A stretch of 58,366 nucleotides of DNA from Nitrososphaerota archaeon (lineage in GTDB: Archaea; Thermoproteota; EX4484-205; JAAOZP01), in the NCBI GenBank assembly GCA_011605725.1, contig JAAOZP010000007.1, positions 1 through 58,366 on the forward strand, written 5' to 3'. The position numbers were made by a program, and so were the translations under genes. This document shows, one piece after another, positions 147 through 46,233 of the stretch (the first letter of the stretch is position 1; each line of letters begins with the position of its first letter). The notes under the pieces were generated by a model. It saw only the letters and a list, made by a program, of their open reading frames with translations. It was not told the DNA's origin and did not search any database.

Positions 147-235
147 ACTCCAATCCCTAAATAATCTCTACAGTAAAAGAGTATATAAAGTTTTTGCTCA
201 TTATAACGCGCTCTGTTAACTTTATGCCATCATCC

Positions 236-243
236 GCGCGCGC
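236..243. repeat. (GC)4 palindromic tract at a fragment junction
   Basis: tccGCGCGCGCtatg. Confidence 0.9.
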
Positions 244-406
244 TATGCTTAAGGGAGAGGCTCCTAAAGACATAATACTGCACTACACTTGGTCAAGGTT
301 AGACGATCCTTATGGAGTCTTCTGCTGCTGGGAGGCGCCGAGCAAAGAAGCTCTGGTTAAGCTGTTCGAAAAATACTTGCCTACACTGTTGAAATACACT
401 GAGTTT

Positions 407-414
407 GCGCGCGC
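407..414. repeat. (GC)4 palindromic tract at a fragment junction
   Basis: tttGCGCGCGCtaaaaa. Confidence 0.9.
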
Positions 415-627
415 TAAAAATAGGAGTGTTCAACACAAGCATGCCTAGAATACCCAGTAGCCAGAGGTCAAATCAAATACGAGTTCAACCATCTCTTGGA
501 GAAGCTCTCGGAAAGAGACGAAGAGCTATACGTTAGGCTAAGGATGGTGAAGGGAATCCAGCAACACCCGGTCTTCTACATTACTGAAGGCCCGATAGAG
601 GAATGGGGAAAATCAAACTCTTCATAG
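415..627 (+). pseudogene. C-terminal fragment of pyrimidine dimer DNA glycosylase/endonuclease V family gene, frameshifted
   Basis: KIGVFNTSMPRIP, then a +1 shift at CCC 453-455, then VARGQIKYEFNHLLEKLSERDEELYVRLRMVKGIQQHPVFYITEGPIEEWGK...stop. This matches the family C-terminus (IPVTxGQxxYExxHLxxKL...HPxF...GxxExWE). The N-terminal half is absent. Confidence 0.7.
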
Positions 628-632
628 CGCGC
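627..632. repeat. (GC)3 tract at the end of the glycosylase fragment
   Basis: catAGCGCGCTaaac; TAGCGCGCTA is a palindrome. Confidence 0.8.
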
Positions 633-644
633 TAAACCTCTCCG

Positions 645-660
645 CAATATTTAAAAAGCT
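645..660 (+). promoter_or_regulatory. Archaeal TATA box for a probably leaderless mtaB transcript
   Basis: aatatTTAAAAag about 25 nt upstream of the ATG at 682. Confidence 0.55.
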
Positions 661-681
661 GTTGAATCGCTTGACTGGAAA

Positions 682-2049
682 ATGCGCGTGTTCAGCCGCT
701 TAGAGTTCAAAGACCCGTCTGAACTGGTCTTCGGATCAGCTAAGCATCCTTTGAACTACGGCTTCGGGCTTAAAGTAGGGCAGGGTGAAGTGGTTCCTGA
801 AGTAAAGTTTTTCCCTAGGGCTCTTTCCGGCAAGGATCCTGCAGGGTTTAAGGCTGAGGTGCAGGCCATAACGAGGGAGGTTCTCGACAGGGCTGTTGAA
901 CTAGGCGTTCCCTCTCTTCAGATAGAGACTGAGCTGACCTTCATGGAGACTAGGAACCCTAGGCTTGCAGGCGAAGTAGTAAGCATGCAGAAATCCCTGA
1001 TGGAGAAATACCATGAGGAGAATGGTTTGAAGCTTGGCTTGAGAGTTACTGTTGCAGACATAAGGGATTTCCGGGAGGGTTTAAGATCAACCGCGAACTA
1101 TAGTCTCATGATGGAGGCTTTCGAGGCTGTTTCCTCTAATGGTGCAGACGTCCTGTCTATAGAGTCTGAAGGCGGTAAAGACGTTTTCAACCATAGCTTG
1201 ATCAGGCAGGATGTTGAGGGAATAGTTTTCTCAGTCCTGCTGGCGTCTTTAGACATGAGCCTCATCTGGAGGGATATTGTTAACGTTGCGAGGAGAAACG
1301 GCTGTATCGCTGGCGGGGATACTGCTTGCGCTATTGCAAACACGGCGATGAAGCTAGCGGGCGATGTGAAATCAATGCTGCTGCCCCACACGCTTGCAGC
1401 CGTTGTGAGAGCCATGTCGGCAGCAAGGTCTCTAGTTGCTTACGAGCAGGGGGCAACAGGTCCAGGGAAGGACTGTGGCTATGAGAACGTGATCCTGAAA
1501 GCGATAACCGGCTTCCCAATGTCGATGGAGGGTAAAAGCAGTGCTTGCGCGCACTCCAGTCTAATAGGTAATGTTGCTTCCGCATGCTGTGACCTCTGGT
1601 CTAACGAGCAGGTTGAAAACCTAAGGCTTTTCGGGGGGTCAGCGCCCCAGGTTTTCCTTGAGGTTCTCCACTATGATTGTAAACTGATGAATAAAGCAGT
1701 AATGCTTGGGAAAGCTCTGGAGCTTAGAGATATGCTTGTCCTGTCGGACAAGTTTGACGATCCTCAAGCCCTTGTTCTCTCCCCGGATGTTGCTGTTAAG
1801 ATTGCGGAAGCAATAGTCTCCGAGCATGGTGATTACTATAGGCGGGTTAAGTCTGCATGCCAAAAAACAGTTGAGATCCTGGAGGGCTCCCGGCTTCTAC
1901 GCTTAAGCCCTCCTGAGCTCCGCTTTCTCTCCCGCTTTAAGAGCATTGCTGATTCTCTTCCGGAGGATGGGGAAGTATTCAGGGAAAGGATGTGTAGGGT
2001 TTTTGCAGGGAGGCTGCCGACCTTCCGGGAGAGGGATTACTGGCCTTAA
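682..2049 (+). CDS. mtaB: Methanol:corrinoid methyltransferase MtaB family
   Basis: MtaB motifs SIESEGGK, GDTACAIANTAM, GPGKDCGYEN, EGKSSACAHS and DLWSNE. The Zn-ligand Glu/Cys/Cys positions are retained. 455 aa. Confidence 0.9.
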   Translation: MRVFSRLEFKDPSELVFGSAKHPLNYGFGLKVGQGEVVPEVKFFPRALSGKDPAGFKAEVQAITREVLDRAVELGVPSLQIETELTFMETRNPRLAGEVVSMQKSLMEKYHEENGLKLGLRVTVADIRDFREGLRSTANYSLMMEAFEAVSSNGADVLSIESEGGKDVFNHSLIRQDVEGIVFSVLLASLDMSLIWRDIVNVARRNGCIAGGDTACAIANTAMKLAGDVKSMLLPHTLAAVVRAMSAARSLVAYEQGATGPGKDCGYENVILKAITGFPMSMEGKSSACAHSSLIGNVASACCDLWSNEQVENLRLFGGSAPQVFLEVLHYDCKLMNKAVMLGKALELRDMLVLSDKFDDPQALVLSPDVAVKIAEAIVSEHGDYYRRVKSACQKTVEILEGSRLLRLSPPELRFLSRFKSIADSLPEDGEVFRERMCRVFAGRLPTFRERDYWP

Positions 2050-3890
2050 TCAAGCAGGGGAGTCCTCATGCTTATAGCCTTCATTACTCTTGGAAACATG
2101 TCTGTCCTCCTATGTGGGAACTGCGTCGCGTCGATAAACTCGTTTTGAAACTCGCGGACCGTGTTTAAATCAATAGCCTTCACTTTCTTAGCTACGGTTT
2201 CAGCCTCCTCCCTAATCCTTCTTGAAAGGAGGCTCATTACCGCTCCCTGGCCTGAGCCGTTCCCTATCTGTATGATCCTGCTTAAGGGGAGCTCAGGCAT
2301 CATGCCGACTATCATCGCCGACCTCGGGTCAATATAGTTTCCGAAGGCTCCTGCAACGTATACTTTAGACACCTGGTTCAAGCTTACTCCGGCAATCCTT
2401 AGGAGAAGCATGCATGCGGTGAATATGGCTGCCTTCGCAAGCTGGAAGCTTCTAACGTCTTTCTGCGTTATGCAGATTCTCCTACCCTCCTTGTTAACAG
2501 CTAGCACGAAAGCCTTTTCTCCATCAGTATTCACGATTCTCGGATTATTCAGGTCAGCAATCCTCCCCTTCTGGTCTAATACTCCAGCTATAAGCATCCA
2601 TGCTACCGCGTCGACAACTCCTGAGCCGCATATTCCTCTCGGATCCGTGTCGCCTATCGTCTTATAGTAGACGTTAAGGGTCTCCACGTCGATGGAAACC
2701 GATTCTATCGCACCGTCCATCCCTCTCATGCCGTTAGAAAGGCCAGCTCCCTCGATGGCTGGTCCAGCCGCCGTGGATGATGCGAGCATCAAGTCTCCTG
2801 CTTTCAAGACGACTTCACCGTTGGTTCCAAGGTCTATCAGCATGGATTTCTCATCCTGCTCATGCATTCCTGAGACAAGTATGTCTGCAACCACGTCTCC
2901 GCCAACATAGCCGCTGATTAAAGGGAAAGTATGGCAGACTGCGGAATCGTTCGCCGTAAGGCCTATCTCTCTCGCTTTGAACACTAGGCTGGACCTGAAG
3001 GGTGGAACATACGGTGCTGTCGCTATCGCTGAAACATCCACTCCATAAAGAAGGCTGGTCATAACAGTGTTTCCGGAGAAGGATAATTCGTAAATCTCTG
3101 AGGGGGAGCATTCAGCCTCGTCAGCCGCCTCCTGAATCAACCTGTTTATTGTCGCCACTACTCTGCTTTGAAGCTCCTTCAGATTCTGGCTTCCCTTCAA
3201 AGCGAAGGTTATCCTGGATATTACGTCGTCACCATACGCTATCTGACCGTTGTAATCTGATTTTACGGATGCTATTCGCCCGGTTTTCAGGTTGACCAGG
3301 TAGGCAACGACGGTAGTTGTACCTATGTCTACAGCGACACCGTAGAAATCCCGGCCGCTCGGTCTAACATCCAGGATCTCGTCTTCATGCAGAATCGCTT
3401 CTAAATCCCATTCTAACTCCCTCAGTTTACCGGGCAGCTTCTTGAGAAGCAGGCTGTCGATTGTTTTCGCGTTTAAAGTCTGAAGAAGGCGTTCAGCATC
3501 AGACCTCTGGTCTGTGAGCGAAGGCTTAGGAATCCTGGCTTTCAAGCTTCTAGTTGCAGGATGGGGCTCGAAATCCTTAACGCGTCCCCATTCAAGTATC
3601 TTGCCCCTGGTCTGTCTAGAAGACTGGGGGATCCTAATGGTGACGTCGCCTATGATTCGTGCTTGACAGGCTAGTCTGAAGGATTTCGACAGGCTTCTCA
3701 CTTCTTTTTCCATTGAAGTCGGCTCATTCAACCCGTTGCTGACGACTTCGACGACGCATTTTTTACAAACGCCACGCCCTCCGCAGACGCTTTCAATATT
3801 AACACCCGCCTCTTTAAGCGTGGCTAGCAGGTTCGACCCGTATGGGGCCTGAATCCTAATGCCTTCGGGTTGAATCGTTACCAGGGGCAC
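2046..3890 (-). CDS. ATP-dependent reductive activator of corrinoid proteins (ASKHA/COG3894, RACo type) with an N-terminal [2Fe-2S] domain
   Basis: CGGRGVCKKC...RLACQ ferredoxin motif; DIGTTT, GDDVISRI, DLGTNGE, AAGPAIEG, GICGSG, AGAFG. Confidence 0.92.
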   Translation of the reverse strand: MPLVTIQPEGIRIQAPYGSNLLATLKEAGVNIESVCGGRGVCKKCVVEVVSNGLNEPTSMEKEVRSLSKSFRLACQARIIGDVTIRIPQSSRQTRGKILEWGRVKDFEPHPATRSLKARIPKPSLTDQRSDAERLLQTLNAKTIDSLLLKKLPGKLRELEWDLEAILHEDEILDVRPSGRDFYGVAVDIGTTTVVAYLVNLKTGRIASVKSDYNGQIAYGDDVISRITFALKGSQNLKELQSRVVATINRLIQEAADEAECSPSEIYELSFSGNTVMTSLLYGVDVSAIATAPYVPPFRSSLVFKAREIGLTANDSAVCHTFPLISGYVGGDVVADILVSGMHEQDEKSMLIDLGTNGEVVLKAGDLMLASSTAAGPAIEGAGLSNGMRGMDGAIESVSIDVETLNVYYKTIGDTDPRGICGSGVVDAVAWMLIAGVLDQKGRIADLNNPRIVNTDGEKAFVLAVNKEGRRICITQKDVRSFQLAKAAIFTACMLLLRIAGVSLNQVSKVYVAGAFGNYIDPRSAMIVGMMPELPLSRIIQIGNGSGQGAVMSLLSRRIREEAETVAKKVKAIDLNTVREFQNEFIDATQFPHRRTDMFPRVMKAISMRTPLLD

Positions 3891-4006
3891 GGGTGCAGCT
3901 CCGTTAAACAGTAAATATAAACTTTAAAAAACGTTTAGCTTTTAACAGTTCGAGTAGCAGGTGTTTCAGCGAAAAGCTTTTACCCGGCTTTTTTAAACAA
4001 GGCTCA

Positions 4007-5122
4007 ATGTTCTTTAAAGAGGATTGGGCGGAGGCTAAGGAACGGCTTTCAGCCTGGTGGGAGAAAGATTCTTTAGACAGGCCGCTTATACAGGTGTATG
4101 CTCCAAGGAGCAAACCCAAGTATGCTTCGGAAGAGGATTTGAAGTTCGACTATGATCATTGGGGTTTTCCGAGAAAAATTAAGGATCCTGCTGCCATAAG
4201 CGGAAACATAAAGGGTTTTCGGAGGCAGTGTGCAGAAACCTATTACGGGGGTGAAGCCTATCCGAACCTCTGGATAAACCTTGGCGCCGGTGTTCTTGGC
4301 GCATACTTAGGCGCGGAACCGGTCTTGGAGAGCGAAACAGTATGGTTTGGAGCTCAGAGAAACAATGCGCTTGGGAAAAGCTGGGAGGAATTACGCCGCT
4401 TAGAGTTCGACCCGGCTAACGAATGGTGGATACTTACGAAGAGAATAACTGAAGCAGCTTCTGAAACCCTGGCGGGGTTCAGCATGGTTGGCATGACTGA
4501 CCTTGGTGGAATACTGGATGTCGCCGCCTCGCTGCGGGGAGCTGAAAACCTTGTCGTCGACCTTGTGAAGAATCCCGCGGACGTTAAATCACTCTCCTCC
4601 AAGATTATAGATTACTGGCACATGTGCTACGAAGAGTTGGACAGGATAATAAGGAGGCGCGTAGAGGGCACGTCTGCCTGGATGGGCATATGGTGTCCTG
4701 AAAGATGGTACCCGATTCAGTGTGATTTCGCCTTCATGCTTTCCCCGAAGCTTTTCGACGAGTTTGTGCTTCCACATGTTGAAGAGCAGTGTGAAAGGCT
4801 TGACAGGGTAATATATCATCTCGACGGTCCCGGTCAAATACAGCATTTAAACTCGCTGCTTAAAGTTGAGAGGCTGGACGGCATCCAGTGGGTACCCGGT
4901 GCGGGAGAAGAGCTGCAGGGGAATGACTGTGGGTCGCAAAAATGGATTCCCCTTTACAGGAAGATCCTGGAAGCCGGGAAGCTTTTAGTGCTTTACATGC
5001 CCAGGGAAAAGGTTATTCCAATGCTTAAGGCGCTTGGCTCTAGGAAAGTATTAGTCCAGACTTTCTGCGTTTCCGAAACGGATGCTAGGAAGCTTTTGAC
5101 TGAGGCTGAAAACCTGATGTAG
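4007..5122 (+). CDS. Uroporphyrinogen decarboxylase/MtaA-CmuA-like TIM-barrel protein (putative corrinoid-dependent methyltransferase)
   Basis: DVAASLRGAENL, QCDFAFMLSP, YHLDGPG, IQWVPGAG; divergent from the activase gene. Confidence 0.75.
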   Translation: MFFKEDWAEAKERLSAWWEKDSLDRPLIQVYAPRSKPKYASEEDLKFDYDHWGFPRKIKDPAAISGNIKGFRRQCAETYYGGEAYPNLWINLGAGVLGAYLGAEPVLESETVWFGAQRNNALGKSWEELRRLEFDPANEWWILTKRITEAASETLAGFSMVGMTDLGGILDVAASLRGAENLVVDLVKNPADVKSLSSKIIDYWHMCYEELDRIIRRRVEGTSAWMGIWCPERWYPIQCDFAFMLSPKLFDEFVLPHVEEQCERLDRVIYHLDGPGQIQHLNSLLKVERLDGIQWVPGAGEELQGNDCGSQKWIPLYRKILEAGKLLVLYMPREKVIPMLKALGSRKVLVQTFCVSETDARKLLTEAENLM

Positions 5123-6993: not shown

Positions 6994-6994
6994 G

Positions 6995-12653: not shown

Positions 12654-13358
12654 TTGGATTACAGCGAGCTCCTGAGAAAGAGTCTACACTTCCTCCTCTC
12701 GCTAATACTCCTCCTACCGTTCTTGTTAAACCGGTTTGAAATAGTTTTAGACACAAGGGTTTTCTACTCTGTTTTAAGCATCGTGGCCCTGACGCTGAAC
12801 GCGATCCAGATTAAGCGGCCCCTCTTAAGAAGCGAGGTTAAGGGCTTCATGAGAGAGAAGAGGGAGAAATTCTTCAACGATATTAGAAACTACCTGCCCT
12901 TGAGAAGCAGGGTTACTGCTCAGGTTATAGACAGGGTTGAGGAGAAGATTAGGGGGATAGAGGACCTTATAGACCACCAATTATCAACTGTTGAGAGAGA
13001 CTACGAGAAGAGAGGAGGATATATAGGTTTAACCTATGGAATACTTGGAGTAACCTTATCATACTTCCTGTTCGAGGATTACGCTTTCTACGGGGTTGTT
13101 TCACTGGCTACGACGGATGCTGTAGCGACACTCGTGGGTGGTCTAACTGGTGTTCACAGGCTTCCGTTGACAAGCAAGACTTTTGAAGGAAGTGTTTCAG
13201 GCTTCGCAGCGTTTTTCACAGTCTTGCTTTTAACAGGTGTTTCCCCGTTGAGCGCCCTCATGCTTTCAATCATGGCAGCGATTGTTGAAGCCTACACGGT
13301 AGAGGATAATTTGCTTCTACCCATAGCCGTATCGTTCCTCTCAACCTTTACCGTTTAA
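12654..13358 (+). CDS. Dolichol/phytol kinase (SEC59/CTP transferase family) membrane protein
   Basis: ELLRKSLH, DAVATLVG, KTFEGS, EDNLLLP. Confidence 0.8.
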   Translation: MDYSELLRKSLHFLLSLILLLPFLLNRFEIVLDTRVFYSVLSIVALTLNAIQIKRPLLRSEVKGFMREKREKFFNDIRNYLPLRSRVTAQVIDRVEEKIRGIEDLIDHQLSTVERDYEKRGGYIGLTYGILGVTLSYFLFEDYAFYGVVSLATTDAVATLVGGLTGVHRLPLTSKTFEGSVSGFAAFFTVLLLTGVSPLSALMLSIMAAIVEAYTVEDNLLLPIAVSFLSTFTV

Positions 13359-14125
13359 AGGTTTTTCTTAAACCATTCCGTCGTAATCTCGATAACTCTA
13401 TCCTCATACTCTCTCCCGGTGAAAGTATGGTCTGCCCCATCTATTATTACGAGCCTCTTGGGTTCCCCCGCTTTCTCATAAAGCATGTGCGCGTGTTTAA
13501 CTGGGACAACAGTGTCTCCTGAACCATGCATAATAAGAATCGGCCTTGGAGTGATCTTTGAACAGGCATCCAGTACATCGTGCTTCAAAATGTCCGTGAA
13601 AAAGTCTTTACCCACTCTGAAGCCGCTCGGCAGGTCCACGTAGCCTTTTTCCGTGACTGTTTTCAAATCGGCTCCGAAAGCTTTCAAGCCGTCTGACATG
13701 ATTCTGAATTCAGCCGGCGAGGACCAGCTGCATACTGCCTTCACCATCTGGTTTCGTGCAGCAGTCAGGATAGAGACTGCTCCTCCAAGGCTTAACCCTA
13801 CTACGCCGATTTTATCGCGCGCAACCTCGTTCCTTTCAAGCAGGAAGCTTAAAACAGAGTTAAGATCAGTTATCTCTGAGGAGACCGTCATGTTTTCAAA
13901 CTCGCCCTCGCTCTCGCCGGATCCTCTGAAGTCGAATCTAACGGCTGCGATGCCCTCTCTACTCATTTTCCTAGCTGCGCGTACGAACAGCCTGTGGGCT
14001 TCAACCCTGTTTCCAGTGAAACCATGGCAGAAAACTACTGTCGGAGCAGGCGTTTCATCGGGAACATGCATAACGCCGTGTATTCTCTCTCCTATTACGG
14101 TTACAAATATGGGTTTTTCCTCCAT
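13355..14125 (-). CDS. Alpha/beta-fold hydrolase (esterase/peptidase S9-like)
   Basis: HGFTG, FDFRGSGES, GLSLGG nucleophile, HGSGD, GADH. Confidence 0.9.
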   Translation of the reverse strand: MEEKPIFVTVIGERIHGVMHVPDETPAPTVVFCHGFTGNRVEAHRLFVRAARKMSREGIAAVRFDFRGSGESEGEFENMTVSSEITDLNSVLSFLLERNEVARDKIGVVGLSLGGAVSILTAARNQMVKAVCSWSSPAEFRIMSDGLKAFGADLKTVTEKGYVDLPSGFRVGKDFFTDILKHDVLDACSKITPRPILIMHGSGDTVVPVKHAHMLYEKAGEPKRLVIIDGADHTFTGREYEDRVIEITTEWFKKNL

Positions 14126-17427: not shown

Positions 17428-20151
17428 CTATCTGGGAGGGGGAGGTGGTGGAGGAAGCGTTTGAACGTAAGCAGGCTTTCTTCTTCTCAATAGTAGCGCA
17501 ACCGTAACTATGACGATTAGGGCTAAGACGGCAATGTAGAGCCATACGGGTATGTTGACTGTGTATTTTGAAACAGGCGTCCTAGTCTCGTTTCCAGCGT
17601 TGTCCACCGCTTTAACATAGTACTGGACTTCTGTGAAAGGCATTTGAGAAGGTATTGAGCAAGCGTAGGCTCCTCCTTGAAAAGTCATGGCAACCTCCGT
17701 CCACGAGGAGCCTCCGTTTGTAGAATAGTATAGTTTAACCTCCTTAACGCCTGAAAGCGCGTCTGAAACCTGGCATGTTATTGTTGTCGATTCTCCGAAA
17801 ACAGGGTTTGATGATGTTGACAAGCCTGAGACCGCGGGGGGAGCAGTGTCGACAGTAAGCGTGAAGGAGCCGCTCCATGTTGCAGTGTTATCCACATTGT
17901 CAACAGCCTCAACGCTCCAAGTGTGAGAGCCTGCTGAAAGGCTTATCGTCTTAGAGTAGTCGCTGCCAGCAGTCATAGTGCCTTGGGAAACACCGTCGAC
18001 CATTAGCCTAACCTCCTTAACTCCTGATCCGGAGTCTTCAACCCTGACGATGAACCTTACTAGGGACGAGTTCAGAATAAGGCTCCCTGTGGGTGAAGCC
18101 CCGCTTATCACTGGTGGAGTTTTATCCAGAATAACGGGTATTGTTTTCTCAGCCTCACTGTTTCCAGCCTTGTCACTACTGCAGTAGCCTATTGTATGGG
18201 CGCCGTCGGCGAAGCTTGAAAGAGTGAAGCCTGCTGTGTAAGTGTTCCACGGGCCGCCGTCAACCCTATACTTGGTCTCTTTCACTCCACTTGCCTCGTC
18301 GCTTGCTGAAAGCTCGAACAGCGTGGAGCCTGAGACGAAGGTTGTCGCGCCGCTTAAATACTTCGGGGAACCGATTGTTACCGCTGTAACGGGCGGGGTT
18401 GTGTCTGGAATCACGTTCACCGTCGCGGTTGCGGAGGTTAAGCCTGTGGCTGAGGCTGTCAACGTCTGTCTTCCTCCTCTAACATCGTAGTAGTCAACCC
18501 TAACAGTGCTTGAGCCAGCTGGAATAGTGATGCTTGTTATCCTTCTTGCTGTTCCGAACTCCCTGAACTCGCCGTCAGGAGATGTTGTTGAAAGACTCAC
18601 GATTATGCTGGAGGTGTGGGTTGTTTCAAAATTGTTAGCGTCCCTGAGCGAAATGTTAATGTAGGAATAGGTTACTCCCGCAGCCATCGTGAAGCTTGAA
18701 GGCTCTATGAGGAGCTTAGCGGGTGGACCAGCCTTAACGTCGAAAAAGTTGCTCTCGCCGGTCTTCGGAGATACCAGTAAGCCTCCGCTGGTAGTTATCT
18801 TAATATTTTTCCCTATCTTGTTTATTATAACCATTCCGGTCCACTTCCCGTTTACAAAGGCGCCGGTTACGGTTGGGCTTATTGTTCCAGTTGTGTCTGA
18901 AAGCGAGTTCGACCCAGTATAGTCTGTCTTAACGTTTCCAAAAGCATCGTAAGCAGTAATCGTTATGGAGAACGGTACTGCAACCTGCTTCGGAGAGGAT
19001 ATTGTGTCGAAGGCGAAGCGTTCAAGCGGACCGGGTGTAACGGTCAACTGCTTTTTATCGTCACCATAGTTCGGCACTGCCACGAGAAAGCCTCCGCTCC
19101 AAGCCCAATACATATAGTCGTCCGTCCAAACCTGAATATTCCATGTCCCCGCCTTATCATCGTAATAGTAGAAATCCGCATGGTCTTGACCATTAGGTAT
19201 CGTAAGCTCGGTTATCTCCGCCCCACCCTGGGTTAGAGAAAACTTTTTGTTAGTCGAGGTGGAGGTTGAGCTAAGCCTAACCTTAAGGTCTCCGCGCGTC
19301 ACAGCCTCGTTATCCTTAGTCTTCCTGTAGACACTCATCTTAACCCATTTACCGGCTTCAAGCGTAGTGCTTTCAAGACTAAGCTCTAAATGCGGAGGAT
19401 AATACTTAACCTCAAGATATGGTCGTTTACTCGGGTCATCATATTCTTTCGACCTCATATAGAATCTAATCGTGGAGGGAGCTGACTCAGCGCTGTCTTT
19501 CAACATCCAACCGTAGTTCGGCACGTAGGTGTCTTTAGATGCAAACTTTACAACCGAACCTTTTACGTCTAAAATAAGCCAAACATTCGGATTAATGCCG
19601 ACTGTTACAGAGGTTACAAAAACATCTGCAGTAGGCTGATTGCTCCATTTGATCGTTGATTCAGACCAGTCGCTTCCGGTGACACGATAGACACTCATCG
19701 TCCTGCTTGAAGAAGGAGCCTCATACATGAATAGTTTAATGAAGGCAGAATCTATGACGGAGCCGGGAGGTATGTTGCTAAGATCGAACTTTATGAAACT
19801 ACGTCCATTTTTATCAGCTAGACTTTGAATGTACAGGTAATCAAGGTTGTCAGTCCTATTCGGGTCTCCCTCCCAAACAGAGGCATCATCAGTCGGTGGG
19901 AAAGTTCTGGAGAGCAGAATTGCCCCGTCTCCAGTCACTCTCGTAACGCAGGGTATTGTTGAGCATACGATTGTTATGATTGCTAAGAAGCCTAATAATA
20001 TTCCTGTTCTACTCAACGTTTTCCACGTTAAGGTTACTCTCCCTCGTGATATAAACTTTTTGTTTCGAATAACCATTTTGCTACTAGTTTCGACACGTAA
20101 TCGTAAGCTCCTCGTAATCTTCCGAGCGGCTAAGCAATCTCCTTCAACCAT
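17428..20151 (-). CDS. Large cell-surface protein: DNRLRE/CBM96-like domain, Ig-like repeats, C-terminal TM anchor and poly-Pro tail (true start probably downstream)
   Basis: RSFIKFDLSNIP..SA.IKL, W.E.TI.W.NQP, NYGWML, RPYLEV; DTTPP/DKTPP/DTAPP and A.D.AGN repeats; TM followed by RRRK and PPPPPPP. Confidence 0.8.
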   Translation of the reverse strand: MVEGDCLAARKITRSLRLRVETSSKMVIRNKKFISRGRVTLTWKTLSRTGILLGFLAIITIVCSTIPCVTRVTGDGAILLSRTFPPTDDASVWEGDPNRTDNLDYLYIQSLADKNGRSFIKFDLSNIPPGSVIDSAFIKLFMYEAPSSSRTMSVYRVTGSDWSESTIKWSNQPTADVFVTSVTVGINPNVWLILDVKGSVVKFASKDTYVPNYGWMLKDSAESAPSTIRFYMRSKEYDDPSKRPYLEVKYYPPHLELSLESTTLEAGKWVKMSVYRKTKDNEAVTRGDLKVRLSSTSTSTNKKFSLTQGGAEITELTIPNGQDHADFYYYDDKAGTWNIQVWTDDYMYWAWSGGFLVAVPNYGDDKKQLTVTPGPLERFAFDTISSPKQVAVPFSITITAYDAFGNVKTDYTGSNSLSDTTGTISPTVTGAFVNGKWTGMVIINKIGKNIKITTSGGLLVSPKTGESNFFDVKAGPPAKLLIEPSSFTMAAGVTYSYINISLRDANNFETTHTSSIIVSLSTTSPDGEFREFGTARRITSITIPAGSSTVRVDYYDVRGGRQTLTASATGLTSATATVNVIPDTTPPVTAVTIGSPKYLSGATTFVSGSTLFELSASDEASGVKETKYRVDGGPWNTYTAGFTLSSFADGAHTIGYCSSDKAGNSEAEKTIPVILDKTPPVISGASPTGSLILNSSLVRFIVRVEDSGSGVKEVRLMVDGVSQGTMTAGSDYSKTISLSAGSHTWSVEAVDNVDNTATWSGSFTLTVDTAPPAVSGLSTSSNPVFGESTTITCQVSDALSGVKEVKLYYSTNGGSSWTEVAMTFQGGAYACSIPSQMPFTEVQYYVKAVDNAGNETRTPVSKYTVNIPVWLYIAVLALIVIVTVALLLRRRKPAYVQTLPPPPPPPR

Positions 20152-26495: not shown

Positions 26496-26615
26496 CGGTC
26501 GACAGCGTGTGAAACATTAAGCATGTAGCGCATGCCCAGTTCCAGTATTAAATGATCATGCTACCGCACGGTATTCTGCTTTCACACGCGTTGAAACCGA
26601 TGTTTCAGCCAACAA

Positions 26616-31141: not shown

Positions 31142-31480
31142 ACTTTTAAATTAGGGATGCTAAAATATAAATTTTTAAAACACAAGGTAGTTTCTCACAA
31201 GTATAACGTAAATTCAAGCCTCAATACTCTCCGTTTCAGATGGTTGAATAATCCGTACGCGTTATCGGTTCGCCGCGCATCCCCTGGGCACAGTTCCATT
31301 TCAACCAAGCGTTTAGCCTAAGATGCTAAAATATTTGGTTTTATAAGACGGGTAGGATTATGCTTCGATACGTTAGTAGCGTGCTATTACCGTTAGCCAG
31401 GGATATGACGGTGGTTGAAGATACGAGGTTTTTATACGCGTCGAGCGCGCTTAAGCATCGCGTCCTTCAGCAGTTATTCC

Positions 31481-32433: not shown

Positions 32434-32846
32434 GGCTTAACCGTCTCCCTAACCCATCTCCACCCTCTTGCAGTATTCTCCTTCTTCCAGATGGGTGCGC
32501 GCGCCTTAACCTTGTTTATCATCCAGCTGCAGGCTTCGAAAGCCTCCGCCCTGTTTCTCGCTGAAGCCGCTACTAGAACTATGTTTTCAGCCGGCTTAAG
32601 TCTTCCAACCCTATGGATTATGGCTGCATCAATTATTCCGAACCTCTCCAGAGCCTCGCTCCTTATTTTTTCAAGCTCAGCCTCAGCAGCCTCCCTGTAT
32701 GCTTCGACAATCATTTCACTAACATCCTCGCCCTCTCTAAACCCTTTTACAACACCTAGGAAAAACACTACCGCGCCGACTTCCTTTCCCTTGAGGATTG
32801 AAGCAACCTCGTCTATCGAGAAATCCTTCTCAGTAACACGGATCAT
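32430..32846 (-). CDS. moaE: Molybdopterin synthase catalytic subunit
   Basis: GAVVFFLGVV, HRVG.L, APIWKKE. Confidence 0.93.
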   Translation of the reverse strand: MIRVTEKDFSIDEVASILKGKEVGAVVFFLGVVKGFREGEDVSEMIVEAYREAAEAELEKIRSEALERFGIIDAAIIHRVGRLKPAENIVLVAASARNRAEAFEACSWMINKVKARAPIWKKENTARGWRWVRETVKP

Positions 32847-39919: not shown

Positions 39920-39929
39920 GCGCGCGCGC
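39920..39929. repeat. (GC)5 tract between a TATA promoter and a 5'-truncated ORF
   Basis: aaactttataagcttgtaaaaaGCGCGCGCGCtaaacgagATG. Confidence 0.9.
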
Positions 39930-39937
39930 TAAACGAG

Positions 39938-41512
39938 ATGCTTTCTCAGCATCAGAAAGGAACGTTCGCAAGCTACATGAAGAAGCTCCCGTTCTTGGCG
40001 GGGATAGTGCTGGGATGCATAATAGGCATACTGGGAGCGTTAAACTACATTATCAAGTTCACGACAGTATTCTTCGCATTCGGCCAGTTTTACCAGCAGT
40101 GGTTCGCCGACCTTATGAACTCAATATCCCGGAACACGATACAATCCTGGTGGATGTTCATACCTGCAGACGCTGCGATAATGTACCTCGCCCCCTTAGA
40201 CGTGCTTTCCTCAATAGTCATCTGGCTATTCATATTCCAAATACTGTTCCCGCTGATACTCGTCAACACGGGGATGATAACACCCAATACTAATCCGTGC
40301 TGGACAGGGCCGTTCCCTTGGAGCGCTTTCAGCTATTACTGGGCTCCGCGCGCGCTTTTCGCGGTCGGAACCGATATTGCTCAATACATGGTGGGATGGC
40401 TTATCCCGTTCAACGCTGCGGTATGGATGTTCATCGGCTCAGTGGCAGTCTGGGTCTTCGGAAACTCTATAGCGCTCAGGATAGACCATCCCTACTTCAG
40501 CATGTGGCAGAGAGAATGGACTTACGGTGCGTCAATCCAATGGTGGTGGCAGAGGGCAATCTATGACCTGTGGGCAAGCCCGCAGGTGGGTTTAACACTC
40601 GGAATCGCGCTTGGAATACTTGCAGTCGGAGCAAAAAACATTGCGAGAGCAATCCTCTCTTTAAGGCATCTTTCAGCAGAGCAGCTTAAAACGTCATACT
40701 TGCCTTTCGGCTGGATAATCGCTTTAATCGCCGCCGGGTCTATAGGCGGTCTGCTAGTCTCAGTCTCGCTTGCTCCAGAATTATGGTTCGTCTGGGTGGT
40801 GACTTGGACGATAGTTCCGTTTATTCAAGGCATACTTACAGCGAGGGCGACGGCTGAAACAGGGTTGTCTGTCACCATACCCTACATTAGGGAAGCGTTC
40901 TTCGTATCTTTCACAAGGCCTGGGGACGTGATTCCATGGGTGGTTCCAACTCACGTGACTAGCAGCGCTGGGATAATTACTCACAGGGTTTACGTGGCTA
41001 AGCTCCTGAAGGTCAGGCCCCTAGACTACTACAAGGCCTACCTCATATTCTTCATAGTGGCTATTCTCCTATCCCTGCTGTATGTTTCAATATTTTGGGC
41101 GATGACGCCCATACCGTCTGCCTTCTACCCTTACGCCAGCTACTCTTGGCCTATTTCAGCCCTATACTTCTCCCTATGGGTTTCCAGGTCGATCGAGATC
41201 TTCAAGGTTGACGTGATAGCTATCTCAAGCATCTTATCCTTCATAATGGTTGTCGCCTCCTCCCGCTTCCCAACGCAATACTTCTCTCCAATAGGCTTCC
41301 TATATGGTTTTCAAAACATTCCTGCTTACACGCTTCCACCGTTAATCGGGGCCCTGATCGGAAAATGGCTTGAGAGAAGAATGGGTAAGGATAAATGGGT
41401 TGTGCGGAGAGGAGTGATAATCGCAGGAACCTTCTGCGGAATCACGCTTGCAGTCGCAGCCGCAGTCGCAATAACCATAATGGGGAGAGCGATAACAGCT
41501 AAACCATTCTAG
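39938..41512 (+). CDS. OPT/YSL-like oligopeptide transporter, apparently an N-truncated chimera of two paralogs joined at a (GC)4 tract
   Basis: Polytopic membrane ORF with an OPT-like C-terminal half (GTD..GWLIPF, WASPQVG, ARATAETG, PIPSAFYP). It lacks the N-terminal part with the LxFP motif. GCGCGCGC at 40348-40355. Confidence 0.6.
   Translation: MLSQHQKGTFASYMKKLPFLAGIVLGCIIGILGALNYIIKFTTVFFAFGQFYQQWFADLMNSISRNTIQSWWMFIPADAAIMYLAPLDVLSSIVIWLFIFQILFPLILVNTGMITPNTNPCWTGPFPWSAFSYYWAPRALFAVGTDIAQYMVGWLIPFNAAVWMFIGSVAVWVFGNSIALRIDHPYFSMWQREWTYGASIQWWWQRAIYDLWASPQVGLTLGIALGILAVGAKNIARAILSLRHLSAEQLKTSYLPFGWIIALIAAGSIGGLLVSVSLAPELWFVWVVTWTIVPFIQGILTARATAETGLSVTIPYIREAFFVSFTRPGDVIPWVVPTHVTSSAGIITHRVYVAKLLKVRPLDYYKAYLIFFIVAILLSLLYVSIFWAMTPIPSAFYPYASYSWPISALYFSLWVSRSIEIFKVDVIAISSILSFIMVVASSRFPTQYFSPIGFLYGFQNIPAYTLPPLIGALIGKWLERRMGKDKWVVRRGVIIAGTFCGITLAVAAAVAITIMGRAITAKPF
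40348..40355. repeat. (GC)4 tract at the putative in-frame fusion point
   Basis: tccGCGCGCGCtttt; the 12-mer TCCGCGCGCGCT is identical to 233-244. Confidence 0.85.
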
Positions 41513-41522: not shown

Positions 41523-42557
41523 CTACACTTGTTTCCTCCTTATCTCAGAAGTGTAGAGGAGTAGTCTGTCTACCTCTGTGCTCCATCCAAGCTCCTTAGT
41601 GTGGTCCGGATCCACTGCTTCAATCCATATCAACCATCTGTCACCCCTTATCTCGTCGAATAAGACTTGAGCATAAGTGTGAATCGGGTACTCGCTATGT
41701 TCGAAACGTGAAAGCGGAGTCCAAATCGTTTCGAAAACAGTTTCTAGATTCAACTTTTCTAAATCTATATGGTAGGCGACGAATTTTTTAGTAAGCGCGT
41801 TCCCATTTATCACGTCTAGCGTTTTAGTACCTATGAAAAACATGCCTGTTGCCCCAGGGATTATTGAACCGCTGAGAAGGAAGTAATCCGGCTGATTCTT
41901 GCCGTCAACAGTCGGTATTCCGAGCTTAACCCAGTTCTTCCCGTTGGTACTGACGGCCAGCGCAGTCTTCACGATACCTGTGCCTGCTTTCCTGGCTTTG
42001 TAGAGGCAGAAATACCTGCCGTCAACTATGTCGATAGTCGTGTCTCTCGACTCTCCATCATCGTATTCTTCGCTCCCCCTGATTACGAAGCCTTCAGGTT
42101 CCCATGGGCCTGAAGGGTCTTCCGAAGTCAGTAGAAACGTCTCCCACCTGCTTTCCATGAAAGCCCTTCCCTCGACAATCAGGCTCTCCCTTGAAACGTT
42201 CAGCGAAAGATAAAGATGGTACCTCCCTGTTGAAGGGTCTTTTAAAAACTGCTGGTTTTCTATGCTTAGGATTCGGGTTCCAATCATCCCGCTCAACTCC
42301 TCCTTCGTAATCCATGTCACTAAACCATAGTTCTCACCATCCTTCGACCTGTATATTTCTACAGCGTAACCCCTTCTCATGTCCCTCATTTCTCTCGGCC
42401 TGCTCGTCAACCAGTATTCTCCGTTCTCCTCGTCAACCCATATTTTCCCAGCTCCGCACCAGGAACCAGGGTTGAAGTTAGGAGGGTTGAGAATCACCCT
42501 GTTAAACCTTCTTTTAGAGAAGACGGCTTGAGGCGGGTAAAGACCATGCCAGCTCAT
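41523..42557 (-). CDS. Five-bladed beta-propeller glycosidase-like protein (GH43/32/130 clan-like)
   Basis: SKDGENY, DPSGPW, RDTTI, YKAR, STNGKNW. Confidence 0.55.
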   Translation of the reverse strand: MSWHGLYPPQAVFSKRRFNRVILNPPNFNPGSWCGAGKIWVDEENGEYWLTSRPREMRDMRRGYAVEIYRSKDGENYGLVTWITKEELSGMIGTRILSIENQQFLKDPSTGRYHLYLSLNVSRESLIVEGRAFMESRWETFLLTSEDPSGPWEPEGFVIRGSEEYDDGESRDTTIDIVDGRYFCLYKARKAGTGIVKTALAVSTNGKNWVKLGIPTVDGKNQPDYFLLSGSIIPGATGMFFIGTKTLDVINGNALTKKFVAYHIDLEKLNLETVFETIWTPLSRFEHSEYPIHTYAQVLFDEIRGDRWLIWIEAVDPDHTKELGWSTEVDRLLLYTSEIRRKQV

Positions 42558-42721
42558 GACAAAACTTGGAAAAAATAATTATTTAAGGCTTCGTTTCTCG
42601 AGAAGTGAAGCATCAAGGCTCCAACCAATAAATGCTACGGTTAGAATGATTTGGAGTGCTAATGCCCTTTTTTCCCTTACAATAAAACTGGGAATAAAGA
42701 TTGTTCACATCTCTAGTGAGT

Positions 42722-43795
42722 TCAAACTGAGAATACGTCTTCTGTGTAGGAAACGCCTGCTGCATGTATGCCCCATTCCCGGTATTTTAAGCATGTTGCA
42801 GAATAATACGCCGTATAGATTGTTCCGTCGTCAAGCTGAACGCTACTCGGATACCCGCAATCAGCGTCTGTCGCATAGGAGACTAGAGCAACCCTCTTGT
42901 TAAACATCCATGATTGACCGTCATCAGGGCTTATCACTGCATGCACCCCGTAAGGTACTCTCCGGTGTCCAAAGGTTAACAAGATGTTTCCGCTCCTAAG
43001 GTAACAGAGGTCCCCAGGGTGTTCACCGCAAACAGTTACCTGTCTAGGCTCAGACCATGTGTACCCCATGTCTCGCGAACGGCTGATAGCAACGCATTCG
43101 CCACCACCCTGAGCACAGGGTCCGCGGAGGGCTGCCAGCAAGTCTCCATCCGGCAATTGTAAAAGAGCGGTTTCATTATATCCTTTAGCAACTATGGTTA
43201 AATCCTTCCATGTGAAACCATTATCCTCAGAGCGTAGAATGTAGCTGTTTTCCATCGAGCCTTCTACAGAATATTCTTGAGAGTAAACAGACATGAGAAT
43301 AGTTCCGTCATCCGTCTGAAGCATCTTCCCATAGGGGGAAACTGCCCCTTCGAACGGAACCTCTATGAGCTCGGGCTTACTCCACTCCCTGCCCTCGTTG
43401 GTCGATCTTGTTACTAAAATTTGCCACTTCATTCCACCCTTCTTCCACAATCCATTCTCGTAGCCCCAAACTCTTGCGAAGGCAACCAGCAGGGTGCCGT
43501 CCTTTAATTGGCAGAAGGCGGGGTTCCTGTCATCAGTCTGGGACGCGGTTACGGTTCGAGGCATTGTCCAGGTCTTCCCACCGTCTTTAGATAACGAAAG
43601 TTCTAAGCGGCCTCTCTGACCAACATGATAATCCCCCATACGGAAGACAGCTGCCAGCTTCCCGTTTCGAAGCCTTGTTAAAACTGGGAAATATCCGCCC
43701 ATAGGAGTTATGAGGTGTCTTCTAACCTGCTTGAGAGAGCCTACCATCACCTCGTCTACGAACTGCATTCCGTATTCTAATTCATCGTCCCTCAT
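42722..43795 (-). CDS. Sialidase/BNR-repeat (Asp-box) glycosidase-like protein
   Basis: Asp boxes SKDGGKTW, STNEGREW, SEDNGFTW, SRDMGYTW, SPDDGQSW; DCGYPS. Confidence 0.85.
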   Translation of the reverse strand: MRDDELEYGMQFVDEVMVGSLKQVRRHLITPMGGYFPVLTRLRNGKLAAVFRMGDYHVGQRGRLELSLSKDGGKTWTMPRTVTASQTDDRNPAFCQLKDGTLLVAFARVWGYENGLWKKGGMKWQILVTRSTNEGREWSKPELIEVPFEGAVSPYGKMLQTDDGTILMSVYSQEYSVEGSMENSYILRSEDNGFTWKDLTIVAKGYNETALLQLPDGDLLAALRGPCAQGGGECVAISRSRDMGYTWSEPRQVTVCGEHPGDLCYLRSGNILLTFGHRRVPYGVHAVISPDDGQSWMFNKRVALVSYATDADCGYPSSVQLDDGTIYTAYYSATCLKYREWGIHAAGVSYTEDVFSV

Positions 43796-43888
43796 GCTCC
43801 ATGTTTTAAAAACGGCTACTTATTAATTTGATACGTGCACGTGTCATTGCTACCGTATGCTGACGGGCATAGTCTTAAGCTACGCTTG

Positions 43889-44971
43889 CTAAGGCATGTA
43901 TGCTCCGTATTTTCTAATTAGCTTTATGTATTCTTGGAATGCGCTGAATGACACGTCAGGCGGGACACTGTGGTCTGAGCAAGCTACGTATCCCCCACCT
44001 TTTTTCGCAACAGGTATTTTTCGAGAGATTTCCTCCTCTATTTCCCTAGGGTTGGCTATCTTCCTAGCGTCAAGGTTCCCTATGAGGGAAAGGGTCTCCC
44101 CGTATTTTTCTTTCAGCTCAACAACATCCATTCCCGCCTTAACCTCTAACGGCTGTATCGCTGTGAATCCTGCCTCAATCAGTTTAGGGATAAGCAGGTT
44201 CACATTACCATCCGTATGTATTATGACCGGCATGTTTCTTGCCCTGTAGGCAGAGGTCATTTGAACATGCGCCGGCTTCACGAACTCCTCGTAAATCCTC
44301 GGGGAGAAAAACGGCCCCTTACTGTAAGCCATGTCCTCCCAAACCCATAATCCGTCAACCCCCAGCCTGAGATAAGTCTCCACGATTCTAGAGAAATAGT
44401 GGCCCAAGTGTCTGAAAACATATTTTACGAGACTAGGGTTCCTATGGATGGCGATCAAAACCTTGTCCACGCTTTCCCCAAGTATGTGTCTAGTTGTTTC
44501 GAAAGGCCCTATTATGGAGCAGAAAACCGCGTAACGCTCCTTAAGCTTCCTTATGCCTTTCTCAAGCTCCCCTTTGAAAGGGTACCTGCTGCTTGAAACC
44601 CTGTTCGGCAGCTCAGGATCCAGGAGTGGCTCAAGCTTCTCTTTAAACTCTTCAATCGTTGAAACCGACGGGGGGCCAGCAGGATGAGGGGTGCCGCTTC
44701 TACCGATCCAGGCCTTAACCGTTACACCCCACGAGTCTATGTACGTTCTGAACTTATCGTTCTCCTCGATTATGATGGTGTCATACTTAGGGCTGACATC
44801 CGGACCTATCAAGTAAATATCGTAGCCGAAATATTCGTGTAGAGAAACCCCTCGCGGCAAGCCTTCGCTATACCATCTCTCCAGGGTCTCGCCCCATGGG
44901 AAGTCTATGAAGGGAACCCTGTCCGCTTCCTCATGGTTTAATACTCTTAACACTCGTTCCCTGGAATCCAT
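43889..44971 (-). CDS. Uroporphyrinogen decarboxylase/MtaA-like family protein
   Basis: SRERV..L.HEEADRVP, DSWGV, EDMAY..GPFFSP, HTDGN, QPLE, SDHSVP. Confidence 0.82.
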   Translation of the reverse strand: MDSRERVLRVLNHEEADRVPFIDFPWGETLERWYSEGLPRGVSLHEYFGYDIYLIGPDVSPKYDTIIIEENDKFRTYIDSWGVTVKAWIGRSGTPHPAGPPSVSTIEEFKEKLEPLLDPELPNRVSSSRYPFKGELEKGIRKLKERYAVFCSIIGPFETTRHILGESVDKVLIAIHRNPSLVKYVFRHLGHYFSRIVETYLRLGVDGLWVWEDMAYSKGPFFSPRIYEEFVKPAHVQMTSAYRARNMPVIIHTDGNVNLLIPKLIEAGFTAIQPLEVKAGMDVVELKEKYGETLSLIGNLDARKIANPREIEEEISRKIPVAKKGGGYVACSDHSVPPDVSFSAFQEYIKLIRKYGAYMP

Positions 44972-45039
44972 GCATTCAACACTTGGCTTAATTACTTAAG
45001 TTTTTAGCATCGAGATGGAAAACGGGTCGTCGATCGGCT

Positions 45040-46224
45040 TCACACTGTCCTCCTCATCATTAAAAATAATGCTGTTGAAAAAAGCGTTAGAACGCTCGCC
45101 GCGTAAAATATGGATGCTGGTCCAAAACGCTCCCAGAGAAGACCTCCCGCTATTCCGCCGAAAACCCCGCCTAAACCGTTGCTGAGCTCTATGAATCCCA
45201 TTGCCTCTCCAAGGTTTTCGCCTTGGCAAATCTCTGCTGTAAGCGTCCTCCTAGCGGGGAGATCCATTGCTCCAGTGATTCCGAAAATGAAAATATAGAA
45301 CCCCATGGATGCGAAGTTATCGGATAAAGCAAGGAGAATCCAGGCTGGCGAGGATATCGCTAGATGTGTCAGCATCATCCTCCAGCTTCCCTTTCTTGTT
45401 GTGACCCATGCCCAGGGAAGGAAGCCGACGGCAAGCCCAATGTTCCAAATAGCTATGATCATTCCAACCCCCGCCATATCTAGGCCAACTACCTTCTGGG
45501 CGAAAAGGCTGATGTATGGAGAGATGACGAAGAATCCTAGTTCGTGAAAGAAGATTGAGAAACCGTAGAAGACTAGGCGCTGATTCCGCCTAAGCATCTG
45601 TAACGTTGTTTTAATGTCGACTGAGCGTGTTAAAACATCCAGCCTGTTGCCCGTAGTTCTTCTTCCTCTCGAGACATAGAGGTAGTAAATCGGGATCGAT
45701 AAGAGGAAGAGTGTTGAAGCCGTGAAGAACGGGAGTTCTGGTGCGAAAAACTTTGACAGCCAGCCGGCTAGGAGCGAGCTTACCGAGGAACCCGTGAGTG
45801 TTGCAAGATAGAAAACGGCGAAGAAGAGTGGAGCTTTAGAGGGCTCCGTGTTTTCGAATATTAGGGCGTTAGCATTAGGCGTGAACAAGGCTGTTGAGAA
45901 ACCAATTAGAACATATAGGGATAAGGCTGTGAAAATATTTGTTTTTAAAAACACCAGTATGCACGCTATCGCGCCTAGGAGGCTCGAAAGCATGAGGGGG
46001 GTACGCCTGCCGGTGAAGTCTGAGAGTCTGCCTAAAGGCATGGAGGAGAAACTGATGATGCTCCAGCTGATCGAGTTCAACATGCCTATTTGACCCGGGG
46101 AGACTCCTCTGCTGTTGAAGAAGGGAGCTGCTATTGCTCCCTGCATGGAGGAGGCTGATTGATGAACCAGCCCGCCTAAAAGAACTCCTTCAAAATTTCT
46201 GTTTTTCCACTGTTTAAGGCTCAT
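45040..46224 (-). CDS. MFS transporter
   Basis: GRLSDFTGRR motif A; about 12 TM segments. Confidence 0.88.
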   Translation of the reverse strand: MSLKQWKNRNFEGVLLGGLVHQSASSMQGAIAAPFFNSRGVSPGQIGMLNSISWSIISFSSMPLGRLSDFTGRRTPLMLSSLLGAIACILVFLKTNIFTALSLYVLIGFSTALFTPNANALIFENTEPSKAPLFFAVFYLATLTGSSVSSLLAGWLSKFFAPELPFFTASTLFLLSIPIYYLYVSRGRRTTGNRLDVLTRSVDIKTTLQMLRRNQRLVFYGFSIFFHELGFFVISPYISLFAQKVVGLDMAGVGMIIAIWNIGLAVGFLPWAWVTTRKGSWRMMLTHLAISSPAWILLALSDNFASMGFYIFIFGITGAMDLPARRTLTAEICQGENLGEAMGFIELSNGLGGVFGGIAGGLLWERFGPASIFYAASVLTLFSTALFLMMRRTV

Positions 46225-46225
46225 A

Positions 46226-46233
46226 GCGCGCGC
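46226..46233. repeat. (GC)4 tract in the 15-bp spacer between the DUF6485 and MFS genes
   Basis: catAGCGCGCGCTtg. Confidence 0.85.

Follow-up and report, generated by a model that had tools for sequence, protein, structure and literature searches.

In a 58,366-nt contig of an archaeon labelled Nitrososphaerota (the window; contig C16 of assembly G000, a metagenome-type assembly of 2.23 Mb in 20 contigs), short (GC)n tracts were found to be de novo filler at DNA joints, absent from the intact or parental DNA. The tracts are probably the scars of a joining reaction in which RNA-templated, self-complementary tails link DNA ends. On comparative grounds, we favour the view that some archaea labelled Bathyarchaeia or Brockarchaeota use a PriS-like primase belonging to the superfamily of archaeo-eukaryotic primases (AEPs), together with a small k-turn-like RNA, to write an RNA-specified tail for homology-free end joining. 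The nearest public records are metagenome-assembled genomes (MAGs) labelled Nitrososphaerota, Bathyarchaeota or Brockarchaeota.

The window was compared with the sister species G002 (the closest relative of G000), G016, G007, G008 and G003, which have DNA identities of 70-90%. A walk along its full length showed that it is mostly collinear with four relatives apart from the tract-bearing changes, and every clear G000-specific structural change seen in it carries a tract. At 40348, 39920, 46226 and 31445, two to four sister genomes hold the undeleted DNA, and their breakpoints are tract-free. The largest change is at 40348, the flanks of which lie 6391-6418 bp apart in G016, G007 and G008. In these relatives, the sequence is ...gggctcc / cttggc at the edge of the left flank and ...ggagctg / ttttt at that of the right one, with no tract in either place, whereas G000 reads ...gggctcc / GCGCGCGC / ttttcgcgg, with eight new bases sealing the deletion. 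Through this joint, a membrane-protein gene (gene A) and the 3' part of a gene farther downstream (gene B) have become fused.

The second deletion, at 39920, shortened the distance between a TATA box and ...aacgagatgc from about 727 bp in G016, G007 and G008 to 110 bp in G000. The joint reads ...gtaaaaa / GCGCGCGCGCta / aacgagatg, and neither breakpoint has a tract in the three relatives. The 5' end of the membrane-protein gene (about 200 codons) was lost and the TATA box was kept. The piece surviving between the two joints has 82-86% identity to G016:C4:28231-28646, G007:C42:65251-65667, G008:C8:91212-91627 and G002:C26:12417-12832, and the gene B part has 85-89% identity to G016:C4:20470-21815 and to its orthologous counterparts in G007, G008 and G002. 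Together, the two joints yield a chimeric open reading frame (ORF) of 524 aa at 39938-41512, for which no Pfam family was matched. The exact 26-mer across the 40348 joint had 0 matches in a metagenome collection and the 524-aa product is not on record, which is uninformative either way.

Two smaller changes are micro-replacements. At 31445, G007 and G008 read tatacgcgtc / ctctcaatatc / gcttaag, while G000 reads tatacgcgtc / gagcgc / gcttaag; this 6-mer, absent from the list in an earlier note on the window, is also a junction tract. The same spacer contains a tract at a position common to G002, where it is intact, and G016, where it has decayed; G008 carries one at a different point. At 46225-46233, in the spacer directly upstream of the start codon of an MFS transporter gene (minus strand), four relatives read CAT / tagtgagaacacatctctaaatt... 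/ ttgaacc, in contrast to CAT / agcgcgcgc / ttgacc in G000.

Near the contig start, upstream of mtaB, the tracts bound captured pieces of other genes. Window 242-410 (169 bp) is 98% identical to G000:C1:24871-25039, and that parent has neither flanking tract. At the left border, the window reads ...tcc / GCGCGCGC / t / atgctt against ...acagcc / atgctt in the parent; at 407, the parent reads ...gagttt / gtgccag against ...gagttt / GCGCGCGC / t / aaaaatagg in the window. The source is a small gene with a weak SCO4226-like match (Pfam PF14026, below the curated cut-off). The second fragment (416-626), which matches no Pfam family, shares 86% identity over 416-617 with G000:C1:30192-30392 (minus strand) and 85% with G002:C2. 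Its gene is present in a third copy, 73 bp long, at C1:28337-28408, which is flanked by GCGCGC at one end and by a decayed AGCGCGTGCT at the opposite end. From 632 onward, immediately past the GCGCGC at 627, the window is syntenic with G002; there, the tract-free G002 sequence ggaactaagccttctcc corresponds to GCGCGCtaaacctctcc in G000. The gene mtaC lies directly upstream of mtaB in the more distant relatives G006, G010, G007 and G003 but not in G000 or G002. At window 1-2049, mtaC has been lost in both, G000 carrying the captured gene fragments instead, and MtaB is left without its usual partner at the locus.

The earlier note, made from the window alone, had proposed that deletions are healed through a (GC)n linker. 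This proposal is directly supported, for deletions and joins alike: the linker is absent from the undeleted DNA of the relatives and from the 242-410 parent, and alignment with the relatives, which the note had called for, showed no pre-existing tract at either breakpoint. Since the parental breakpoints are tract-free, two of the mechanisms it had listed, cutting by a BssHII-like enzyme with religation and recombination at pre-existing tracts, were rejected. No GCGCGC site was present at the parental breakpoints in G016, G007 and G008 (39920 and 40348) or in the 242-410 parent. Furthermore, tract lengths reach 12 and 16 bases, and relatives use AGCT and GATC repeats. Recombination at pre-existing tracts found no support at any junction examined, nor did a mobile-element footprint, the flanks being random gene pieces. 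A palindrome of the REP/REPIN-RAYT or MITE type was likewise discarded, as there is no conservation beyond the TA and the flanks are random gene pieces; RAYT genes were not searched for. From the remaining suggestion, GC repeats added by a primase or terminal transferase, we retain a primase-type enzyme and replace the mode of addition with an RNA-templated one. In G008, a 395-bp deletion (C9:68098-68103, window-equivalent 13400-13795) inside the orthologue of gene 13355-14125 has no tract and shows 3-base microhomology. G008 holds only a fragment of the primase-like gene, and this joint is a possible, single example of tract-free joining after loss of the system.

Not every tract is a scar. 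The note had placed the tracts at fragment junctions, which holds for 236, 407, 627, 39920, 40348 and 46226 but not for 32497, in an intact and collinear moaE. Five relatives are collinear there and read GCGTGCGC, GCATGCGC and similar (gtgcgtgcgcc, gtgcatgcgcc); judged by this comparison, the tract, which lacks the A...T flanks, is the product of one substitution inside moaE. The 6-mer at 13817 is in collinear, conserved coding sequence, and those at 1547, 29760, 50249 and 50487 are inside long blocks collinear with the relatives.

The tract is strongly over-represented. Seven overlapping matches of GCGCGCGC were counted in the window (236, 407, 32497, 39920/39922 as one 10-mer, 40348 and 46226), compared with a mean of 0.35 in 100 dinucleotide-preserving shuffles (maximum 2), and GCGCGC was found 20 times against 7.8 expected. 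The coordinates in the earlier note are all correct, and the recurring flanks it listed (GCGCGCTA, GCGCGCTAAAC and TCCGCGCGCGCT) are present. It had also asked for a genome-wide count and a test of enrichment at breakpoints. Genome-wide, GCGCGCGC occurs 229 times and CGCGCGCG 88 times, while other GC-rich palindromic 8-mers have 1-27 copies each. Maximal tracts are chiefly (GC)3, (GC)4 and (GC)5, and few reach 12 and 16 bases. As a consensus, the copies read (T)A-GCGCGCGC-T(A); position -1 is A in 144 of the 229 and position +1 is T in 143, and conservation ends at the TA on either side. Among 621 distinct ends of within-genome duplications detected by self-BLAST, 39 abut a (GC)3+ tract; locally shifted control positions gave 7.6 (200 sets, largest value 17), and the enrichment is present in every identity band. 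The self-BLAST listing also holds many captured fragments of 50-180 bp that are bounded by tracts and have another copy without them (e.g., C9:60797-60865, C1:25196-25255, C9:73381-73559 and C12:18273 in G000).

Most copies (171/229, 75%) are outside the gene calls, which are crude, ORF-based and cover 86% of the genome, leaving 14% outside. Tract density is similar in divergent, convergent and tandem spacers (all four intergenic orientations), and no preferred distance to gene starts or ends was found genome-wide. Because distance and orientation are not fixed, the tracts are not parts of promoters or terminators.

Two proteins of G000 match the primase small-subunit family PF01896. The stronger match, a 377-aa ORF on C11, is taken as the canonical PriS. 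The other is a 292-aa PriS-like ORF on C7 that scores 31.8 bits (curated cut-off 26.8) and matches no other family. All 18 aligned homologues of this AEP match PF01896, with a stray Zn-ribbon match in one of them, and the nearest solved structures are archaeal PriS (9f26, 1g71 and 1v33; E about 1e-11). The invariant columns are D112, D114, C132, C135, S162, G166, H168, H170 and D220 in G000 numbering. They comprise the DxD, the SGxRGxH, a third Asp and the Zn-binding Cys pair, which align to the same motifs of 9f26, and the C7 protein keeps every residue invariant in the family.

Occurrence of the AEP was compared with tract number. Within the genus, the AEP is present in G000, G002, G016, G006 and G012, survives as a pseudogene in G007 and only in part in G008, and was not found in nine genomes with 3 or fewer tracts; G003, G004 and G014 are free of it. 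Counts of AGCGCGCGCT are 88 in G000, 70 in G002, 118 in G016, 32 in G007, 33 in G008, 18 in G006 and 16 in G009. The remaining nine members of the genus have 0-6 (three with 0 are over 90% complete), seven same-genus genomes have 0, and a reversed control pattern gave 0-3 per genome. G006 (AEP, 18 tracts) and G010 (no AEP found, 3 tracts) are near-identical in the stretch read, upstream of mtaB. This pair is the one contrast that deep ancestry does not explain; kinship confounds the rest. Across the phylum, the AEP was found in 7 of 401 sampled genomes, and G023 has a homologue at 31% identity. Genomes with the AEP-RNA pair are represented by about 80 protein clusters and 27 genome loci. At the 18 loci, only the AEP, with its RNA, is conserved; the neighbouring genes vary and no conserved neighbour was detected, although PriL was not specifically searched for. 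The candidate partner radA is a neighbour only inside a genus-level clade, and the beta-lactamase-fold genes near two loci formed no cluster of conserved neighbours.

In contigs of distant homologues, a conserved RNA element follows or slightly overlaps the AEP stop codon. It consists of GG(G)YGAUGAAA, 3-8 nt, a variable segment of 5-9 nt, A(A/G)AAC and a hairpin enclosing AACAUAGYGAGGGUAACCRCGAUGAC. On 12 sequences, the hairpin comprises 14 pairs with 93.9% of cells paired and 11 pairs showing compensatory changes; none of 500 shuffles reached this score, and slid alignments gave 37-54%. The 5' part, including the variable, template-like segment, is predicted to be single-stranded. No Rfam family resembles the element. 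In one alignment (A3, e.g., L078:871-961), two GAUGA boxes are seen, one in the 5' GYGAUGAAA and one in the CGAUGAC within the hairpin. By analogy, they recall the L7Ae-binding C-box or k-turn motifs of archaeal RNAs.

In the variant found in the genus of G000, the hairpin is longer (CAGGGCUGYC...GRCAGCCCU). Because this hairpin differs, a covariance model of the distant type (R1) detected only G016:C64 in the genus (E 0.019). In G000, the canonical copy on C12 reads GCGAUGAA-cauga-GCGCUAAAAAC-hairpin, and its G002 ortholog differs at 1 of 67 bases, a U-to-C change that converts a G-U pair into a G-C pair. G016, which has the most tracts, holds two RNA copies with GCGCUA. An RNA remnant with GUGCUAACAAC is found in G010 (3 tracts), and MAG L062, which has the same downstream sequence as G006 (18 tracts), has an RNA with GGGCUAAAAC. 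Directly downstream of the AEP, alignment of G000 and close relatives revealed no conserved hairpin; 3' of the intact C7 gene, we found ACGCUAAAAAC with ACGCUA, no recognisable hairpin, and then a pair of genes for a HEPN protein and a nucleotidyltransferase (MNT-like by sequence reading; G000:C7:379845-380751). In G000 and G002, this pair is directly 3' of the intact AEP, where other lineages have the RNA hairpin. Extra partial copies of the radA-AEP-RNA locus also occur: at G000:C12:18264-18935, a piece of radA that begins at a tract is accompanied by an AEP pseudogene and the intact RNA, and G000:C4:117000-117070 (ortholog in G002:C29) is an RNA remnant with GUGCUA that ends at a decayed tract.

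The single-stranded RNA segment covaries with the local scar sequence in four sequence classes. Scars were counted at each locus after masking of the RNA. At nine loci, the segment contains ...GCGCUA..., the scars are A(GC)nT and the other motifs are essentially absent, with overlapping GCGCGCGC counts of 19 in L077 (20.7 kb), 13 in L067 and 6 in L057 (at 38% G+C). L064, with the segment AGCGCGUA (GCGCGUA), has 18 (CG)n tracts, typically ta/CGCG...CGCG/ta; this is the phase-shifted TA(CG)nTA form, with A(CG)nT found 5 times and A(GC)nT twice. In L054, the segment is AGCUAGCUA, and AGCTAGCT occurs 8 times in 13.5 kb, always at gene ends or in intergenic positions. In L066, with GCGAUCA, the repeats are (GATC)n and GATC/TCGA; 7 tracts were counted in 20.7 kb, with 16 overlapping matches to 8-mers. 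In the classes of L077, L064, L054 and L066, the scar equals the complement of the RNA segment joined to itself.

These observations suggest the following mechanism. Each free 3' end would be extended by the stand-alone PriS-like AEP copying 5'-GCGCUA-3' in the small structured RNA. The product would be 5'-TAGCGC(GC)n-3', with extra GC units arising from re-alignment on the short template; across the templates, the predicted additions are TAGCGC(GC)n, TAGCTAGCT or TGATCG. With both ends tailed in this way, the two tails may anneal through their self-complementary GC parts, and fill-in and sealing by a host ligase would turn the joint into (T)A(GC)nT(A). A palindrome of variable length would be expected because reiterated self-complementary tails anneal, and the A/T flanks would be partial because microhomology with the DNA end can stand in for them (39920 and 627). 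If tails are written onto ends, no particular sequence is needed at the parental sites, and trapped fragments should each be bounded by tracts. In this way, deletions (39920 and 40348), small gaps (31445 and 46226) and joins with trapped loose fragments (236-632) would be healed.

Several points weigh against this mechanism. RNA-templated DNA synthesis by the AEP is something that we infer. The template window was picked after the alignment had been seen, the motif counts per locus are small (2-19), and L065 (ACGCAUA) has no clear matching scar in 9.9 kb. In G000, the RNA beside the C7 gene has diverged and the good copy is on C12; therefore, enzyme and RNA, being on different contigs, would act in trans. 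Co-occurrence in one genus is confounded by shared ancestry, and G009 has 16 tracts with no AEP found (89% complete). At 40348, no A or T was added, and the flanks are not always complete. Finally, the window junctions were not confirmed in an independent assembly.

The AEP and RNA might instead make free repeat DNA, e.g., for defence, that is passively trapped as filler when a general pathway joins breaks, the scars being a by-product. We consider this rather unlikely, although it fits the covariation of template and scar and the co-occurrence equally well. Captured genomic fragments indicate that loose DNA does become trapped at joints, bacterial DRT systems write repeat DNA from noncoding RNA (PMC13213688), and the AEP-RNA module occurs in varied neighbourhoods, like a self-contained accessory unit. 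However, random capture of long repeat DNA predicts wider lengths and a random phase, whereas the scars are 6-16 bp long and usually bounded by TA on both sides (UA in the template), giving the perfect palindrome that is predicted by tail-to-tail annealing. Moreover, nearly every G000 joint examined has a tract (5 events in the window).

It is improbable that the tracts are recombination sites that were seeded first and then recombined with each other, through a recombinase or through plain homologous or slipped recombination, as in integrons or as HIP1- or REP-like sites. The tracts do cluster in variable regions, lineages carry different tracts in one spacer, and cassette-like fragments are tract-bounded on both sides. 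Yet all four deletion and replacement joints in the window are tract-free at the breakpoints in relatives with undeleted DNA, the seeding and a sequence that follows the RNA are left unexplained, and no recombinase is conserved beside the module. Still less probable is that selection maintains the palindrome as a regulatory site or as one bound by a protein (an operator, or a nucleoid or segregation site). Strong intergenic enrichment and three window copies between TATA box and start codon speak for such a site, but density is similar in all spacer types, distance to starts is not fixed, and the tract is not conserved at orthologous positions, arises with deletions and is absent from close relatives with the same genes. 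Chimeric joining during amplification or assembly, conceivable in a 20-contig metagenome-type assembly the junctions of which were not found in an independent one, is the least credible explanation, as more than 15 MAGs from unrelated projects and assemblers have scars of this kind, decayed copies exist, one scar at an orthologous position is intact in G002 and decayed in G016, the reading frame is kept across the 40348 joint, and an artefact would not track an RNA template.

Table 1. Coordinates of scars, joined pieces and module components (window positions unless a contig of G000 is named)
Feature	Position	Strand	Basis or context
(GC)4 joint, left border of captured fragment 1	236..243	.	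Parent-copy comparison
Captured internal gene fragment 1	244..406	+	Self-BLAST, side-by-side reading
(GC)4 joint between captured fragments 1 and 2	407..414	.	Parent-copy comparison
Captured 3' part of second, unrelated gene	416..626	+	Self-BLAST
(GC)3 joint	627..632	.	G002 synteny
(GC)3 in micro-replacement, 11 nt to 6 nt	31445..31450	.	Comparison with G007 and G008
GCGCGCGC in moaE, not a scar	32497..32504	-	Full-length MoaE Pfam match, collinear relatives
(GC)5 plus TA joint of ~0.62-kb deletion	39920..39931	.	Undeleted DNA of relatives
Surviving middle piece of membrane-protein gene A	39932..40347	+	DNA of relatives
(GC)4 joint of ~6.4-kb deletion, in frame	40348..40355	.	Undeleted DNA of relatives
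3' part of gene B	40356..41512	+	DNA of relatives
A(GC)4 replacing about 23-30 bp of spacer	46225..46233	.	Four relatives
Intact PriS-like AEP, 292 aa	C7:378918-379796		After dinB and radA; PF01896
Canonical RNA copy, GCGCUA	C12 ~18845-18935		Beside AEP pseudogene fragment

Elsewhere in the window, the spacer at 26496-26615 varies from 8 to 585 bp depending on the species, and the spacer region 42592-43893 is longer by up to 1.7 kb in G016 and G008; G002 has no orthologue of gene 42722-43795. In G000, these two spacers contain only possible decayed tracts (e.g., agcgcatgc at about 26527). An open-ended ORF at the contig start (3-146, minus strand; 48 aa read) has no Pfam match and by eye resembles a small protein of the ribbon-helix-helix type.

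The proposed system resembles several known ones in part. Telomerase consists of TERT and telomerase RNA and can add telomeres de novo at breaks. Here too, a dedicated polymerase seems to extend DNA 3' ends, probably reiteratively, by copying a very short template that lies in its own structured RNA, and the product changes with the template, the association of AEP and RNA being a prediction. The enzyme, however, is a primase of the AEP/PriS type (only an AEP domain was found) and not a reverse transcriptase, and its product is self-complementary, 6-16 bp long and an internal joint of a circular archaeal chromosome rather than a cap. All tracts examined are internal joints. Junctions made by non-homologous end joining may contain filler DNA and insertions of captured fragments, like the extra nucleotides and stray genomic fragments at the joints described here, but ordinary filler varies in sequence, in contrast to the single palindrome, specific to the lineage, that is seen here. 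REP/REPIN elements with RAYT transposases and cyanobacterial HIP1 are short over-represented palindromes and, like the tracts, are mostly intergenic, lineage-specific and highly over-represented. REPs, however, are longer hairpins that spread as units, whereas the tract occurs only with a deletion or join and follows the RNA template.

The archaeal replicative primase PriSL(X) of Saccharolobus performs microhomology-mediated end joining and polymerises across discontinuous templates, according to two reports (PMC12019639, PMC3333859). It is likewise described there as an archaeal AEP acting in double-strand-break repair, with ends bridged by short complementary stretches; it uses microhomology already in the ends and is not known to leave a constant filler or to use an RNA. 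In the system proposed here, a constant microhomology is seemingly written first, by a separate, rare paralogue with its own RNA and no adjoining PriL (PriL itself was not searched for). The bacterial defence-associated reverse transcriptases DRT2, DRT3 and DRT9 use noncoding RNA templates (PMC13213688). They share with the AEP-RNA pair the design of a small protein and RNA module that writes short repeat DNA from an RNA template, but are reverse transcriptases of phage defence, and their products are not known as chromosomal joints. Our literature searches turned up neither a description of the motif nor one of an AEP that has a template RNA; if the proposal is true, the enzyme would be the first RNA-templated DNA-writing member of the AEP superfamily that we could find.

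How double-strand breaks are rejoined in archaea lacking Ku and LigD is an open question. If true, the proposal would add an RNA-programmed end-joining route, parallel to telomerase and DRT and of independent origin, i.e., a telomerase-like, programmable system built on a primase fold. Because the template is short and lineage-specific (GC, CG, AGCT and GATC repeats), it can be tested in vitro by template swap, and such a compact enzyme could be useful as a tool for furnishing DNA ends with a sticky tail of choice. The window supplies outgroup-polarised cases, namely two deletions, two micro-replacements and two captured fragments. Its scars explain a chimeric membrane gene that retained its promoter and a replaced spacer before a transporter gene, and they bound the foreign DNA now upstream of mtaB, where relatives have mtaC. 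In the scars, deletions, gene fusions and the capture of fragments have left a built-in record, from which the history of genome rearrangement in these archaea may be read.

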